Positions 2,128-56,955 of a DNA stretch of 64,000 bases are shown here, in pieces; within the stretch, counting starts at the first letter, position 1, and every line of letters begins with the position of its first letter. The position numbers and the translations under genes are program-made. The notes under the pieces are model-generated. The model ran no database searches and was not told where the DNA came from. It was given only the letters and a program-made list of their open reading frames with translations. The stretch is from Eledone cirrhosa (Eukaryota), in NCBI GenBank assembly GCA_964016885.1, contig OZ024740.1, forward strand, positions 216,814,001-216,878,000. Reading direction: 5' to 3'.

Positions 2128-2219
2128 ACCAGTCTGAAGAGCAGATAGTTACTGAAGTCAGGTCCATGACTCCTATGGGTTACCTTGAGCCAATCATCTA
2201 TAAAACGCGCGTAACAGGT
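2128..2219 (+). ncRNA. Type I hammerhead ribozyme remnant, long-stem-II subfamily (GAAA decayed to AAAA)
   Basis: accagt-CTGAAGA(2134)-61 nt-AAAA-cgcgcg-TA-acaggt; stem I 5/6 bp, palindromic stem III. Confidence 0.65.
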
Positions 2220-3065: not shown

Positions 3066-3413
3066 ATGTAGGAGGTGAGTTTTATTGTAGTACAATAAGG
3101 CAATGCAGATATCGGATAAGTAGCACTCTACAGTTTGTAGGACTGGAGTATAAATAATATATAAGATCAAAAGATGGTTAAAAAAGTTCCATGTATTTTA
3201 TTATGCGCATTTCAAAAACAAATATCATCATGCAATAACATTTGATATGTTGATTTAAAACTGCACTATTCACAAGGGTTTTTTAACCTTCATATCATGT
3301 CTCCCTATTTTATATGACGAAAACGCAAATGTTATTGCATGATGATATTTGTTTTTGAAATGCGCATAATAAAATACATGGAACACTTTTAACCATCTTT
3401 TGATCTTATATAT
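3066..3413. mobile_element. PLE-type terminal fragment with ~88-bp inverted arms (3157-3244 / 3326-3413)
   Basis: Arms carry a degenerate hammerhead (atgatga..GAAA-tgcgca-TA); left flank GCACTCTACAG..TGGAGTATA resembles 24660-24682 and 54166-54192. Confidence 0.6.
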
Positions 3414-24438: not shown

Positions 24439-24523
24439 GGTGACACGCATATCACCACTGATCAGCTCGCGGTTCGATCTGTATCGATCTCGCCCAACTC
24501 TGTAATCCACGGCTTGTCAGACC
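24439..24523 (-). ncRNA. Hammerhead remnant, long-stem-II subfamily (core mutated)
   Basis: Minus: ggt-CTGACAA-gcc..60 nt..ggt-GATA-tgcgtg-TC-acc; homologous to 31410-31501 and 42274-42352. Confidence 0.55.
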
Positions 24524-24728
24524 CCTTATAATGGTAATGAAAATTGATAAACCTACAGTAACTCCAAGTTACACTCCCTGGATATATATATATATATATG
24601 CAAAGTTTTATTTAAATTGTTGGGTTACAACGAGTAAATATTTATAACTGATATAAAAGCACTCAACAAGTATTTGGAGTATATTTACGATATTAAATAA
24701 ATGGAAATTATATTTATAAAACCATATT

Positions 24729-24794
24729 TATTTCATTATATATATTTCAGGGATATCATATTAAAAATATGGTATGCCTTCATCAGACAAAATA
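24729..24794 (-). ncRNA. Type I hammerhead ribozyme (mirror copy)
   Basis: Reverse complement of 25013-25078. Confidence 0.75.
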
Positions 24795-25012
24795 CAATAT
24801 AAACAGTCTTATAAATAGATAGATTTGACATACCTTACAACTTCAACTTCCATTTAAAAAGTTGATTTGGTAGTGAAAAATGTTAGGGACAGTTATAACT
24901 GTCCCTAACAATAACTGTCCCTAACATTTTTCACTACCAAATCAACTTTTTAAATGGAAGTTGAAGTTGTAAGGTATGTCAAATCTATCTATTTATAAGA
25001 CTGTTTATATTG

Positions 25013-25078
25013 TATTTTGTCTGATGAAGGCATACCATATTTTTAATATGATATCCCTGAAATATATATAATGAAATA
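25013..25078 (+). ncRNA. Type I hammerhead ribozyme, intact core
   Basis: Stem I tattttgt/atgaaata (8 bp incl. 2 GU); CTGATGA 25021-27; stem II agg..catatt-ttt-aatatg..cct; GAAA 25059-62; palindromic stem III; AUA cleavage triplet ending 25070. Confidence 0.8.
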
Positions 25079-31313: not shown

Positions 31314-31354
<41 letters not shown>

Positions 31355-31409
31355 TTATTAATATATAAGAGAACAAAGAATGAGTGTTGCATCATATACA
31401 TATTTAATT

Positions 31410-31501
31410 ACATATTACATATGTTTCACTGTTGATCAGCTCAAGGAATGATCTATTAATGATCAAACCTGACTCTGGAATTGGAAGTTCCTCAGATATG
31501 T
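31410..31501 (-). ncRNA. Type I hammerhead ribozyme with 61-nt stem II domain, intact core
   Basis: Minus: acatat-CTGAGGA-act...agt-GAAA-catatg-TA|atatgt; perfect 6-bp stem I; GUA cleavage triplet. Confidence 0.75.
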
Positions 31502-31636
31502 TTCAACATATATATACATATATACAATACAGTACTTACAAAAATCATTGATATTAACTCTGCAGCCAACATCTCACCCATTTAACACATATATATATAT
31601 ATCTGTATTTTACATGCATTTCACAACTACACACAT

Positions 31637-39915: not shown

Positions 39916-40324
39916 TTATCTTGATGTCCATTCTATCGGTTACTTGCTTAAATGTACCATCGTTCTGTCTTCCTCCTTCCATTGGTATATTTATTTTTTT
40001 CTTTCACTCCCTCATGGCCTTTTGATAGATAAAAGGCTATAGGCACGCTACGGATAGATGTATAGTTTATAATGCGCCGAAACATCTGTGACCCGTAGTT
40101 AACTACTGATGAAGGGAGAATGTCCACCTCTTGTTTGTGTCTCCTTAACTTCTAACACCCGTTATCAGTAACCACACAGTCCCTCCTCTCATCCATATTT
40201 TTGATATATAATATATATATATACCCTAATATATTTATAAATGTGGATATATAGCCATATATACATATATACATTATCATATAGACATTCATCTGAATAA
40301 AACTGTTTCTATTTATTCTTACAG

Positions 40325-40600: not shown

Positions 40601-40761
40601 TAAAATCAAATATATAGATGGAAAAATTGACTTTTAAATCATTTTCTTCAGACCAATGATATATAAGCACATTGAGATATTTCTGAACCTACTTGCCTAT
40701 TATATACTATCATATATAATTCTCTACATACATTTGAACTTTGTATATATTTTTACCTTTG

Positions 40762-40843
<82 letters not shown>

Positions 40844-40846
<3 letters not shown>

Positions 40847-42019
40847 AAGGAAAATAGGGCACCGGTCCCATGTGGGAAATGGCCATGCTCAGTGTGTAGG
40901 AAAGGAGTAGGTAGAAACTCCATTTTATGTCCCAAATGCAAAGTATGGGTACATAAAAGATGTAGCGGGATCACAGGTAAGCTAACTAAGAATATAGATT
41001 TTATATGTGGCCGGTGCTCTGGTGCAATAAGTAGCAGCAAGTGCCCACAGAATACTAACTCATTCCATTGCACAGATGGTTCTATAGAAATAGTGGACAG
41101 CTTCCGTTACCTGGGTGATAAAATCAGCAGTGGGGGAGGGTGCTCTGAAAGTACAGTAGCTAGAGTCAGAACGGGATGAAAAAAGTTCAGAGAGCTTATA
41201 CCACTATTGGCCGCTAAAGGGTTCTCTCTAAAAATGAAAGGCAGGCTGTATGATGCCTGCATACGAACAGCAATGTTACATGGAGGTGAGATCTGGGCAT
41301 TGTGTGCAGAGGATATACGCAGACTGGAGAGAAACGAAGCTTGCATGCTCCGCTGGATGTGTAATAGTAATATACGTGAACGGCAAAGCATAAACGTACT
41401 AAGGGAGAAATTAGAAATAAGAGGGATCAGATGTTGTTTACTCAAGAGAAGACTACGTTGGTATGGTCACGTGATGTGCATGAAAGACGACAGCTGTATA
41501 AAAAAGTGCAGGGCAATAAAAATAGACGGAAGCCACGGAGTAGGCAGACCCAGAAAAACCTGGGACGACTTGATAAATTCCGACCTCACACACTTACACC
41601 TCTCCAAGACAATGTCACTGGACCGAGAGCTTTGGCGCTACACAGTAATAGAGAAGACCCGCCTTACCTAAGTACAAAGTGAAACCTACTACAGTCAGAA
41701 GGCACCACTAACAAAGTACACCCCGTCAATGTAAAGTTATGTTGGTGTCACAACATCCAGCCCGAAACAAATGAGGTCGTGTAGGTGTCACGACAAAAAA
41801 AAACACAGTCCACGCTGTAATGTGGCCGTGTAGGTAACACGGTAAAAATCTCCCAGTCCCACACTGTAAATGTGGTTGGTGTTAGGAAGGGCATCCAGCC
41901 GTAGAAAACCCGCCAGACAGTCCTATGCGAGCAAGACAACCACTCTTGCCTCAAGTGGGAAAACTCCCGTCCAAACCCATGCAAGCGTGGAATATGGACG
42001 TTAAACGATGATGATGATG

Positions 42020-42053: not shown

Positions 42054-42273
42054 AAGTTCAAATGTATGTAGAGAATTATATATGATAGTATATAATAAAT
42101 ATATATATATATATAACAAAGGAAATGTGGTAAGGAACCAGATGGACCATAACGCACCAAAGTACTCAATACTTAGGGTAGTATATATATATATATATAT
42201 AGATGATGATGATTATATATACATAGAGAGAAAGAGAGTTTAGTGATTCAAACATCATTAAGCTAACAGAATT

Positions 42274-42352
42274 CTGATGAGCTTTTGATTCCAGAGTCAG
42301 GCCCGATTAATTGAGATCAAACCACGAGCTGATCAATTGCAAAGAGCGTGTC
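42274..42352 (+). ncRNA. Hammerhead remnant, long-stem-II subfamily
   Basis: CTGATGA-gc..60 nt..gc-AAAG-agcgtg-TC; stem II domain aligns with 31428-31488. Confidence 0.55.
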
Positions 42353-45300
42353 ACGCCTGAATAAACTTAATGAAAATGTGACACCTCATCCATACTTATT
42401 GTTAACATATATATATATATATATATATACCATATATACAGTAAGCACCACCCAACCTCACCCTCCCATACATATTTCAAAGTGGTCGTGTAGGCATCAT
42501 GCCAAAAAGCACCCAGTCCACATTGTAAAGTGGTTGTGGAGGTATCACGACAAAAATCACCCAGTACTCACTGTGAGTTTGGTGCTAGAAAGGGCAGCCA
42601 GACATGGTCACCTGACCTAACATTGTCCACAACCGGACAACTCATCTAATCTATGCCAGGGTGGAAAAATTGATGCAAAATGATGATGATGATGTGTGTA
42701 TCTTTGTGTTTCATATAGTTTCTTGTGTAGATGAAACAATGATAAAGCCTTTACTTCACGATTACATTTTCCTAATGAATGTTTTACTGAAAAGTGTCTG
42801 CTTCTATTGCAATCTAATACTATTTGCCAGTTGTATCACCTGGCAAGAGGGCCAGGACTTGAACTCAGAGCATAGTAAACCAGAACAAATATCAAGGGAG
42901 ACCATCATATAGTTCTCTTAGAGTCCTATGTTACCACCTGCTTATGTTTTGAGCCCAATGAAGCAAGGATTTCTGTTCTCTTTCATATAGTAGGATTGGT
43001 TGTATTGTAGTTTAGAAGAGTCTTACTTTGGAAGAATTTGGTAGGTTGGAAAGCCAGATAGTGTCAATATTATTGCATGCTGACCTTACCTGGGCTTTAT
43101 TAGTGTTAAAAATATTTCCAGAGTTCATGATCCAAGAACCAAAAGTACTTAAAATCAGTAGCTTTCTTTATTTCACTTCCATCTGGGTCTTTGAGGGTGG
43201 TTTAAACAGATGAATTTGTGATGTACTCAGTCATACTTTCATTGAAATGAAGACTAACAAGAACAGCTGCTTCTTGGAGAGCCATGAGAAGGTGTTGGGT
43301 ACAGAAAACGTGTGATTACTAAAATAATGTAATCGTTGTAAAACATATACTGGTATCTGTTTTGTAGGATGCAAATATCTGATACTAATTCTGGAATAGA
43401 GTGAAATAATTTATTATATATCAAAAAGGAACTGTAACTTGTAATACAACTTTCACATAGACTCTGATTATAACTATCAGGCTTGTAGCACATGTGGTTA
43501 TCATTTTCTTGTATAAAATATATTGTATATATATTTGTATTTGTTTTGTTCTTGCACTAGCTTCAGTCATCAGACTGTGACCATGCTGTGGTTTTCACCT
43601 ATTCAAAACATTAATTTGGCAAAGACTGCTTACCTCCCTTACTTGCTTTATCTTCATTCCAACAGACGAAAATTCTGTTTTCTTATTCCATGTGGCATTA
43701 TTCAAGTTAAAACAATGAGTTAACCTATGCTTTTTGAATGAAATTTGGTATGCGAAAACTGTGTAGAAGCCCTCCATATATGTGTGTCTGTGTTTGTGTG
43801 TGTTTACATTTAATGTTTCTTTATGTTTCACAAGTTAGTTGTTCAGTGAAAAGTACCAAACTGGAAACAATACTAACTGGTGTTCATATGATCAACTAAA
43901 TCACTTCAAGACAGTGCCTTTGTATGGTCACAGACAAATGCCTGAAACCAGTAAAAGAATAGAAGAATGAAGTATTGAAAATGATAAACAACTCAACTAT
44001 ATAGCCATCTCTGTTGTAATGGACAACTTCATGTATTAACACTTTTATTATATTTCTAATGAAATATACTGCCTATGATTTTTAATAAATTTCAAAAATA
44101 ATCATATCTCATTTATTAAGTTGATATTTAGAACATAATTTAAGAAAAGGTTCTTAGAATAAAATTATCAATAGTTTAAATTTAAACCTAAACAATAATA
44201 GAATGTTGTAGTTTGCTTGAAGCAGTGTGTATAATGTAGAAAATGTTTTGTTTTAGGGCAGCTAAGACAGTGTGAAATGGAGAGTAAAATTTAGTTTAAA
44301 TGAAAGCAACAAAGAAGTTTGTGTTACCTGTATATTTTTAATCATTTTCAAATAGACATTGTTACTTGACAATCTGATCAAATACCTATCAGAGATAGGA
44401 AGCAGTGGAGGTCAACCAAGGAGGGGTTCCTCCAACAAGTGCGAGAAGGCCCTGGATTAGGATTGTTACCTAACCATTGTGTCTTTTACACAGTGACCAT
44501 GTAAAATATGTGAGGTTTTATATGTTACCTTTATTTTACCACTCTTGCAAAGTTGAAATACAATGTTGACCGCAACTGTACTTTATTCTGTCAAACCTGG
44601 AAAGTTGAAAAGCAATGTTGACCCCAACAGAATTTGAACTCAGAATTTCAAAAGTTGGAAAAATCACAGCAATGTTCTAATGACTGAGCATTTTATTGAT
44701 TCAACTTTTAAAAATAAAAATTAATTTATCAATGTTTCTTCTCAAGTATTCTATTAATCTATCTTCAATTAGATCAAATTTATTTTAAAATTTATCTGAT
44801 AAATAACAAATTACAGTTTATATATTTTTCCTCATAACTATGCGTGTGTATATATATTTTATGTCACTTTCAATTTAATCCTCTTGTGAATTTGTATGCT
44901 GTAAATATAAATTTAATATTTAATAGCTGTTTCACAACATTTTTGTTGCTAATTCAATGAGCTTTTTGGTTATTATCAAACTCTTTTCTTTCATAATAGT
45001 CAACATTATATTATTTTCATTATCTACAGTGAATTGGAGATGGGGTACACAGTTTTTTTTTTTATCATAAACAGATTGTCTCTGTATGTATATATATATA
45101 TATATATATATACACACGTGTGTGTATGTATGTATATATATACTTGTGTGTATGTATATATGTGAGTGTATGTATGTATATATACATACATACACACACG
45201 CATGTGTGTTTATGTGTATATGTGTGTGTGTATGTATTTTTTTTTTATTTATTATCCTATGAAAATTTGACACTGTTGTTTCTGCAAACCTGCCCTATTT

Positions 45301-52750: not shown

Positions 52751-52810
52751 TTACTCCTATATATATTTCGATGATAGCCATTGAATGGCTATGACCTCAT
52801 CAGGCAGTTA
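52751..52810 (-). ncRNA. Type I hammerhead ribozyme, intact core
   Basis: Minus: taactgc-CTGATGA-ggtc-atagccat-tca-atggctat-catc-GAAA-tatata-TA|ggagtaa; strong stem II, imperfect stem I. Confidence 0.75.
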
Positions 52811-54241: not shown

Positions 54242-54298
54242 TTTTATTATATATATTTCAAGGGTACCTAAATTTTGGTACGCTCTTATCAGATAAAA
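54242..54298 (-). ncRNA. Type I hammerhead remnant (CUGAUAA, G8 lost)
   Basis: Minus: ttttat-CTGATAA-gagc-gtacc-aaaattta-ggtac-cctt-GAAA-tatata-TA|ataaaa. Confidence 0.65.
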
Positions 54299-54586
54299 TA
54301 CTAAAGTTGGTTTACAGATAGTGACATATTCAGACAAGAACTTAACGTTGTGAGTTCTACTTGAATAGTTAAGAAAAACTTCAAAATACAAGATGAATAT
54401 GCTAATGAGGATAATGTTAAAACTGAAAAAGATCATTGTTTAGACGCTAGGTAAATTTAAATAATTATTAGGATTATTTTTTAATAAGAAAAGGAAATAG
54501 GAGTTATTATTAGAGTGGAAGAAAATTTAAGGAAAGATTTTAATAAAAAAATATATTAAAGCTACTAATAGAATATTTATAGGAAA

Positions 54587-55173
54587 GTACGGCCACACTT
54601 AGAATTTGCATCACCAGTCTGGAACCCCTTTCTTGCTCAGAACATTGACCGCCTGGAAACTGTTCAGAGACGTGCAACCAAGCGAATACCCTCCGTCAGG
54701 CATCTACCATACTCTGAACGCCTTGCTTCCCTGGGCATGGATACATTGAAGCTCCGACACCTGGCAACTGACTTGGTTAACACCCACAAAATTATTAACC
54801 ATCTTGCCAACAACAACCCTGAGTACCTTTTTGATTTCCATGTGGGCATGCCTACAAAGTCAGAAAACAGCACAGTTCCCATGACTTTCGGAAACATTTT
54901 TTCACGCTCAGAGTTGCTGAAGCATGGAACAAACTACCTGCATCAGTTGTTAGCTGTCGAGACACTGCATCCTTTAAAACCTCCATGCTTCTTGAGATTC
55001 GCCAACACTACACCTAATGTTCCCCCTCCATACACATACACACATGTATATCATGACTCATACACTATTCACTTCCCTGACATTTGTATATTATTCTATG
55101 TACTATACATGCACCTTTGACGAGTTGTAGTGCACCTGAGCACTTTACACAATAATTTCATCATTATTATTAT
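54587..55173 (+). mobile_element. CR1-clade LINE 3' fragment
   Basis: VRPHLEFASPVWNP..LETVQRRATKRIP..LPYSERLASLG..(frameshift)GHAYK..RKHFFTLRVAEAWNKLP..SFK; (ATT)n tail. Confidence 0.9.
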
Positions 55174-56166: not shown

Positions 56167-56730
56167 CTATAGACTATAGATACTTTTAAAAGTCTTGGAC
56201 TGTTGATGCAAACAAGAATTAAATAATTCTTACTTTTTGTTTATAGCATTCTTAGGGTTGGTAATTATGTGAAAAATTTCTTCAATACAGAAATGACAAA
56301 TTCTTGAGAGAGCCATATTCTGTTATGTGGGCGCTTTCGAAATCGTTCTACAACAGATGGAATAGTCAATATTACTGTCTTTTAAGGACCAAATTAAATG
56401 TGAAAGTGATGTTGAGAATTTTTTGTCCTATCTGTGAAATGTGTGTTTATGATTAAATTTTGTAGAAGTGGCTACTATATAGTTATATAATTTATCTCTA
56501 GTTTTTATGGTGCATTTGTATACTAAGTTTTTATCTAGACAATTATTCTGTAGAGTGCAACATAATTTGTTTCTGCAGTTACATTTTCTAGAGTTGTTGT
56601 CTAGAGGAACGGTATAATTATTAAAAGTACTGTTACTAGTAATATTATTATTGCTATTAAGGTTTATTTGGGTTGGGTTTAATTTTAAGTTTCTATTATT
56701 AATTCTATTAATATTTTGTGCTATGTAAAT
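56167..56730 (-). pseudogene. PLE GIY-YIG endonuclease remnant
   Basis: Single frame: KCNCRNKLCCTLQNNCLDKNLVYKCTIK..YNYIVATSTKFNHKHTF..STSLSHLIWSLKD..ICHFCIEEIFHI..INKK*ELFNSCLHQ; three internal stops. Confidence 0.85.
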
Positions 56731-56735
56731 GTATA

Positions 56736-56955
56736 TCATCATCATCATCATCGTTTAACGTCCATCTTCCACGCTAGCATGGGTTAGACAGTTTTGTTCC
56801 ATTTGATGCAGGAATGGTCAGGAGACCATGTCTCGCTCGCATTGAAGCGTCTCTGGCAGGTTTTTTACAGCTGGATGCCCTTCCTAACTCCAACCACATT
56901 TACAGTGTGGACTGGGAACCTTTTCACCGTGTCTCCTACATGGCCACCTTACAGT
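56736..56955 (-). mobile_element. Family A repeat
   Basis: (CAT)n tail, GGATGCCCTTCC motif. Confidence 0.8.

Follow-up and report, generated by a model that had tools for sequence, protein, structure and literature searches.

Penelope-like retroelements (PLEs) carry minimal hammerhead ribozymes in their pseudo-LTRs (pLTRs). These ribozymes have a type I topology, the core boxes CUGANGA and GAAA, a stem II of 6-8 bp and a very short palindromic stem III; they are predicted to cleave as dimers and occur as many dispersed solo copies (Cervera and de la Pena 2014, PMC4209133). Their sequences vary strongly between families (PMC4209133; Lunse et al. 2017 via PMC6765202). On their own they are poor cleavers, and in one example that has been tested the protein is required (PMC4209133, PMC8557442, PMC11167929). 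That example, the PAc hammerhead of Anolis Poseidon, is of the Penelope type and depends on its own protein for cleavage; stem II is where the ORF begins, and the first 172 nt of this ORF form the protein-binding region, which is not specifically stem II; the assisting site is not mapped to stem II (PMC11167929). Longer spacers between the boxes are described in PLE-X1_sMoe and PLE-X1_sTam, single plant families targeted to 28S rDNA, whose hammerheads are marked as deviating from the canonical structure and drawn as a stem with a large loop. PLE-X1_sMoe has 54 nt between the boxes, in a 9-bp stem and a 35-nt loop, and no covariation is reported for either family in the relevant parts of PMC8557442 (File S2). 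In eight Naiad elements, including two from cephalopods, 35-50 nt separate the two core halves of the HHR_half_core motif, and the hammerhead of Hydra-1_oBim has ~22 nt between its boxes (PMC8557442). Non-LTR retrozymes are short non-coding type I units derived from pLTRs, with tandem units, many solo monomers and a short stem II (PMC7229834; bioRxiv 10.64898/2026.07.22.740005).

The repeat analyzed here lies at 31410-31501 on the minus strand of a 64,000-nt stretch of Eledone cirrhosa DNA (the window). Judged by its sequence it is very probably a hammerhead variant of the Penelope type, a type I ribozyme with an unusually long stem II and predicted cleavage as a dimer. It shares with the minimal PLE hammerheads the topology, both boxes, the short palindromic stem III, the predicted dimer cleavage, the many dispersed solo copies and the strong variation between families. 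It differs in having a stem II of ~20 bp in 60-62 nt, an A-U or G-U pair next to the core and a central loop that is conserved in sequence. Whereas the Penelope-type stem II is characterized by ~4-9 bp and a small loop (PMC8557442 File S2, PMC4209133), the insert between the boxes holds 20 pairs in 61 nt. Like the two PLE-X1 hammerheads it is long between the boxes, but no sequence likeness to them was seen. It is of the same type as PAc, which serves as a model for protein-assisted cleavage; unlike PAc with its ORF, the insert of the 31410 copy contains no ATG. Naiads share the (TA)n insertion, yet the two Octopus Naiad 3' ends that we compared have GAAA before CUGAUGA and show no likeness, and the hammerhead of Hydra-1_oBim differs in sequence and has a far shorter spacer. 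With non-LTR retrozymes the repeat has in common a short non-coding unit with a type I hammerhead and many solo monomers; the retrozyme units are tandem, in contrast to the four solitary window copies.

The preliminary description of this locus had proposed a distinct hammerhead class. This is overstated, because stem II measures 13-36 nt in other motifs of the window and 54 nt in the published plant element, and we regard the repeat as a variant of the known Penelope-type hammerhead. Rfam returned 11 matches and 1 match for two copies (E up to 10), with no hammerhead model among them and nothing near a gathering score; searched with the whole window, no hammerhead model was among the 150 of 274 matches listed. 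Blocks of the long-stem family were not found in the supplement of PMC8557442, where line breaks could hide a match. A metagenome scan with two blocks gave 119 loci, the best at 15 bits; the full layout was absent among those inspected, which were chance matches, two of them tRNA-like. Likewise, a viral scan gave one match, a GC-rich coding-like stretch without the core. No 60-nt conserved stem II in animal PLE hammerheads was found in the literature, with subscription papers, Repbase and Dfam outside the scope of the search. The long-stem-II form is probably undescribed, and the alignments of Lunse et al. 2017 could already include the family.

The 31410 copy contains, as first described, both core boxes, a perfect 6-bp stem I and a GUA site. 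Read 5' to 3' on the minus strand, it begins with the stem I 5' arm ACAUAU (31496-31501) and the core box CUGAGGA (C3-A9; 31489-31495). The 5' arm of lower stem II (31482-31488) varies in its letters with pairing kept. It is followed by the 5' arm of the central block, AUUCCAGAGUCAGG (31468-31481), which is predicted to form helices, a 2-nt bulge and an AG/G internal loop, by a variable apical 5-bp hairpin of the GAUC/GAUC type with a 7-nt loop (31447-31467), and by the 3' arm of the central block, CCUUGAGCUGAUC (31434-31446). The lower stem II 3' arm (31428-31433), which fold, variants and covariation support, leads to the core box GAAA (G12-A15.1; 31424-31427). Stem III is an 8-nt palindrome, ACAUAUGU (31417-31424), for which intermolecular pairing is predicted (self-duplex -9.0 kcal/mol). 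The GUA triplet occupies 31416-31418, and the sequence together with hammerhead numbering (PMC4209133) places the predicted cut between 31416 and 31415. The stem I 3' arm AUAUGU (31410-31415) makes six perfect pairs. Beyond it, the element continues as a 3' tail (31352-31409) that includes an AAUAAA-like word and ends at a (TA)n run (31316-31351). Three helices thus surround a core with the ends in stem I: stem I of 6 bp, stem II closing at the core in the majority fold, and stem III of 2 bp or intermolecular. The word AUAUGU occurs twice in the 31410 subfamily, so that the stem I 5' arm can pair with either (31410-31424, 31496-31501). At the position next to the core (G10.1-C11.1) the subfamily has A-U or G-U, and one of the four window copies has G-C; the usual G10.1-C11.1 pair is highly conserved, not absolute, and natural exceptions exist (PMC3088659). 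For the stem I-loop 2 contact, no conserved loop lies at the usual distance from the core in the 31410 subfamily or in the four copies.

Four homologous copies are present in the window, at 2128-2219(+), 24439-24526(-), 31410-31501(-) and 42268-42358(+) (below, copies 2128, 24439, 31410 and 42274), in the layout that had been reported. The spacers from CUGANGA to GAAA are 61, 60, 61 and 60 nt, and the 6-nt near-palindromes are CGCGCG, TGCGTG, CATATG and AGCGTG, in that order, each followed by UH. The claim that the copies share both boxes holds for 31410 and fails for the other three, which are decayed: copy 2128, of a distant subfamily, reads CUGAAGA and AAAA, followed by CGCGCG and UA, with 5 of 6 stem I pairs; copy 24439 reads CUGACAA and GAUA, then UGCGUG and UC; and copy 42274 reads CUGAUGA and AAAG, then AGCGUG and UC. 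The CUGANGA box is therefore found in three of the four copies and GAAA in one, and the A15.1-U16.1 position is A-U in three. In BLAST comparisons, copies 24439 and 31410 match copy 42274 at 71% and 75% (E 6e-9 and 3e-6); copy 2128 has no BLAST match to the other three, and its relationship is seen through the alignment alone (four copies, 93 columns, mean column identity 73%). Each copy is an island of 160-240 nt adjoining (TA)n runs or between them, with related 3' tails. The copies are solitary, 7-22 kb apart, and tandem copies are absent from the 64-kb window. None of the four whole-copy folds beats its shuffles (z -0.71, -0.57, -0.99 and +1.06). The pattern CUGANGA, 55-66 nt, GAAAC, palindrome and GUH has a single occurrence in the window (31416-31495), and none of 100 shuffles contains it; a generic hammerhead descriptor matches 4 window motifs, again with no match in 100 shuffles. 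A covariance model of the four copies found no fifth long copy in the window, and its next matches (at most 23 bits) are short-stem hammerhead-like motifs.

We examined the subfamily in public data by aligning four runs to 31355-31590 at 80% likeness, with X5 and X7-X11, whose shares were small, left aside. The method selects look-alikes and hides short-stem sisters. The aligned material comprised 2,038 contigs of organism A (X1), 1,974 contigs of organism B (X4), 38 contigs of organism C (X6), of which one covers the ribozyme, and, from a separate study of organism A, 1,942 RAD reads (X12). Among the variants listed (the best 40 of 50), none falls in 31489-31501 or 31410-31428. Since no variant of at least 10% is listed in CUGAGGA, GAAA, the palindrome, GUA or either arm of stem I, the intact core and the AT-rich CATATG palindrome are the norm of the subfamily in two organisms. 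Reading CATATG and the AT-rich stem I of copy 31410 as per-copy CpG decay of CGCGCG is refuted, as both are that norm. Depth over stems III and I is 5.6x (X1) and 8.5x (X4) that over the apical loop; summed depth does not equal copy number, and the contig counts show a large family. The depth shows no step across the predicted cut, that is, genomic copies do not visibly begin there, and it extends to ~31360. Family copies also run past both ends of the window copy (31356, 31371, 31501), with shared flanking sequence that is absent elsewhere in the window and might be followed to the parent element or a longer non-autonomous unit.

At five positions of the insert (31482, 31465, 31449, 31443 and 31433), copy 31410 departs from the majority of both organisms. 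Each of the five is a CpG position of the majority, which has 10 CpG positions in 61 (p 4e-5), and CpG decay explains five of five shared insert differences in this copy. Two of the changes break stem pairs, and two turn a C-G into a U-A pair and mimic compensation. Copy 31410 had been called intact; this applies to the core and not to the insert, with its five positions off both organisms' majority. Likewise, the covariation claimed with this copy included was in part CpG decay, with one false U-A compensation. Together the five CpG transitions point to methylation-driven decay of these repeats in the genome.

When the letters of the majority are used, folding gives a single 20-pair hairpin for the insert, closed at the core (-17.3 to -18.7 kcal/mol, z -2.1 to -2.4), and with a 39% variant of organism B it reaches -22.6 kcal/mol (z -3.3). 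The insert of the window copy folds at -13.4 kcal/mol with its base open. What had been seen as a separate folded domain is, in the predicted fold, one irregular, bulged hairpin of ~20 bp, an extended stem II. Its reputed constant length can be kept as about 60-62 nt among the copies that align. Among the variants listed, one indel alone reaches 10%, and it lies beyond the ribozyme, at 31397. Individual length differences are an apical loop of 8 nt in one clipped subgroup, a loss of 35 nt from the 5' arm in one X4 contig and, apparently, a longer tip in the only X6 contig that covers the ribozyme. The apical hairpin is retained with other sequence, GAUC/GAUC type as against CCAUG/UAUGG in copy 2128, and the tip is variable.

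The base of stem II covaries, in agreement with the preliminary description, as alignment columns 17/73 and 19/71 carry three pair types each. RNAalifold on the four copies gave 9 pairs only (-3.5 kcal/mol, covariation term -0.06). With the majority-derived structure applied to the four copies, 78.5% of 121 cells are paired, and both partners have changed in 7 of 31 pairs; an equally high score comes from 3 of 500 shuffles and slid structures give 28-36%, which for four related sequences does not amount to a probability. In the read data, X1 and X12 share two variants that X4 lacks, G at 31484 (52%) and A at 31480 (44%), and a clipped 3' arm UUCGC shows the same distribution, found in the two runs of organism A and not in organism B. 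We infer from these two compensations in the organism-A subfamily, G-C and A-U as against C-G (39%) and U-A in organism B, with linkage deduced and not read from one molecule. The sense strand has many G-U pairs (10 cells in stem II), which fits RNA folding and is not decisive against pairing of the DNA strand. The evidence for covariation from the four copies is modest.

The uneven conservation of the insert is the stronger signal. The central block is identical at 113 of 156 comparisons (72%; 86% without copy 2128), against 38 of 84 in the lower stem and 55 of 121 in the tip (both 45%), 31 of 63 in stem I (49%) and 88 of 192 in the 3' tail; the contrast has a permutation p of 0.0008, the segments having been defined once the data had been inspected. 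Polymorphism in the subfamily affects 2-3 of 27 central positions versus 13 of 34 in the lower and apical stem II (Fisher p 0.007-0.02), and no variant is listed in the core, the palindrome, GUA or stem I. Helices whose only requirement is pairing drift and the middle does not, an apparent sequence constraint. Selection had been proposed for the auxiliary domain; it is the middle, more conserved than the remainder, that points to selection on master elements.

The predicted folding of the majority form differs between one molecule and two. In the monomer, the stem I 5' arm pairs with the palindrome at P 0.82, as against P 0.06 for its true 3' arm. Stem III of the monomer consists of two pairs, and the predicted off state lies 3.6 kcal/mol below the monomer hammerhead. 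This predicted built-in off state is seen in the 31410 subfamily; other subfamilies are without it. The double hammerhead is at -47.6 kcal/mol versus -43.0 for two monomers, and the best cofold of two majority molecules, at -49.8, is 2.2 kcal/mol below the double hammerhead. The seven core nucleotides have a mean pairing of 0.15 in the majority form versus 0.70 in the window copy. The double hammerhead of the window copy reaches only -32.6 kcal/mol, and copy 31410 is therefore a poor test substrate.

The high-copy repeat is likely, by analogy, the 3' end (pseudo-LTR) of a Penelope-like retroelement, an origin assigned because of the (TA)n insertion and of a hammerhead with palindromic stem III near the 3' end. 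The (TA)n flanks and the position of the hammerhead, ~50-60 nt from the 3' end, match PLE anatomy (PMC8557442). Pfam gave no match, RT and GIY-YIG included, for any of 74 ORF pieces; 73 of these lie within 4 kb upstream of the copies and 1 elsewhere in the window (8 of 81 listed pieces were left out). Further on, at 56428-56754(-) and ~250 nt beyond, lies a broken endonuclease remnant with a CxCX5C linker motif. By eye it matches the Hydra clade of Penelope-like elements in a published alignment, its Atlas matches include GIY-YIG clusters at 10% of members, and no long-stem hammerhead follows it. Broken ORF pieces of non-LTR retrotransposons are found at 40676-41671(+), which has a PHD finger (Pfam E 3e-7), and at 54572-55120(+). 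We take the former to have an RTE-like C-terminus after the PHD finger and the latter to be a second LINE C-terminal piece.

Other hammerhead-like motifs accompany the four copies. Two identical ones, at 24731-24792(-) and 25015-25076(+), have intact boxes, a 31-nt stem II, a UAUAUA palindrome and an 8-bp stem I, and are inverted round a near-perfect 128-nt hairpin (24839-24967), an arrangement typical of PLE insertions; copy 24439 lies directly beside this pair. Motifs at 52752-52809(-), 54242-54298(-), 3308-3374(+) and 61772(-) have ~27, 26, 36 and 13 nt between the boxes, some with damaged cores. At 40106-40190(+), CUGAUGA, the start of a purine-rich hairpin and a tail to (TA)n are found without GAAA, possibly a rearranged or decayed hammerhead-bearing end. 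The length of stem II looks like a continuum in the genome (13, 26, 27, 31 and ~36 nt in the other window motifs).

We suggest the following mechanism, parts of which rest on modeling and on analogy. RNA of the repeat would fold as a type I hammerhead in which the stem II hairpin closes right at the core. As a monomer it would be off, with two pairs only in stem III and the stem I 5' arm mispaired with the palindrome. Two copies would pair through the palindrome, form a double hammerhead and be cut after GUA; the models make this dimer mode of cleavage reasonably likely. By binding the central loop, the RT-endonuclease of the element may bring in the RNA and favor its cleaving fold. A role of the stem II middle in protein docking, drawn by analogy, is putative, with about an even chance of being right. 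Docking is favored because the central loop, given its distance from the core, lies beyond the reach of a 6-bp stem I, and stem I is not conserved; a further reason is that cleavage of the one Penelope hammerhead assayed together with its protein depends on that protein (PMC11167929). Taken as a whole, a PLE 3'-end repeat with a dimer-only hammerhead and the stem II middle as the likely docking site for the RT-endonuclease is a reading that could equally well hold or fail.

The conserved middle could instead act as a folding aid made of RNA only, which by docking on stem I or its partner molecule would take the place of the loop 1-loop 2 contact without protein. A sequence-conserved internal loop suits a tertiary motif as well as a protein site, and natural hammerheads commonly use contacts between stems I and II (PMC3088659). 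However, the part of stem II that would lie beside the 6-bp stem I, its first 4-7 pairs, is the most variable one, and stem I differs wholesale between subfamilies (49% identity) with no conserved partner visible, so we hold this reading to be unlikely. We give a similarly low probability to a long stem II that arose once in a master element as a neutral extension, with a middle conserved by descent or by chance in a few subfamilies. Stem II length is loose, as judged from the window motifs of 13 to ~36 nt (13, 26, 27, 31, ~36) and the 54 nt of PLE-X1_sMoe; the segments were chosen after looking, with four full copies compared; and CpG decay alone gave the false U-A compensation in copy 31410. 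Yet descent alone should erode all segments alike, whereas the middle stands at 72-86% and the lower stem, tip, stem I and 3' tail at 45-49%. The read data give the same contrast independently within one subfamily, and the length stays at 60-62 nt.

The insert might also be a built-in off switch, in which the GAGCUGAUC block pairs with the CUGANGA core and prevents cleavage until the core is released by a partner RNA or a protein. Copies 24439 and 42274 do show this pairing in their minimum-energy folds (core paired 0.71 and 0.69), but both copies are decayed, the core of the majority form of the 31410 subfamily is mostly unpaired (0.15), and copy 2128 is without a complementary block; the switch is improbable. 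Least probable by far is that there is no ribozyme, and that a retroposed box C/D snoRNA (UGAUGA ... CUGA) or a tRNA-derived SINE resembles a hammerhead by chance. A CUGA word does stand ~50 nt after the UGANGA word in three of the four copies. Box C needs U at the N position of UGANGA; here this position varies (A, C, G, U), as in hammerheads, and the terminal stem has 1 of 5 pairs in three copies (24439 left out). For a tRNA-derived SINE, the majority reads GGUUCGAUC, which resembles a tRNA T-arm, but the T-arm-like word is missing from the other three copies and ARAGORN finds no tRNA. Furthermore, for any reading without a ribozyme, Rfam gave no match near a gathering score, and GAAA, the palindrome, UH and stem I are the best-kept parts. 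A tRNA or Pol III B-box was rejected as not conserved and ARAGORN-negative; an intron was rejected by eye, since not every copy retains the AG|GU word and its length would be ~40 nt; and K-turn, loop E and SECIS gave no fit, by eye, to the respective consensus.

Returning to the docking of the RT-endonuclease on stem II, its strongest form is a protein-gated hammerhead, with the central internal loop as a dedicated RT-endonuclease module and cleavage only in an assembled dimeric transposition complex. This form, drawn by analogy, is tentative, and we think it rather doubtful. If it is true, thousands of copies in several related animals would make up a new structural subtype, missed by Rfam and by short-stem descriptors, and would offer a direct handle on what Penelope hammerheads are for. 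Counts of hammerheads based on Rfam or on short-stem descriptors miss whole families. A family with an intact core and a conserved stem II loop offers a defined target for mutation and many natural variants for the study of covariation. Stem II is the site where engineers insert aptamers, and a natural stem II module would be of interest for ribozyme design.
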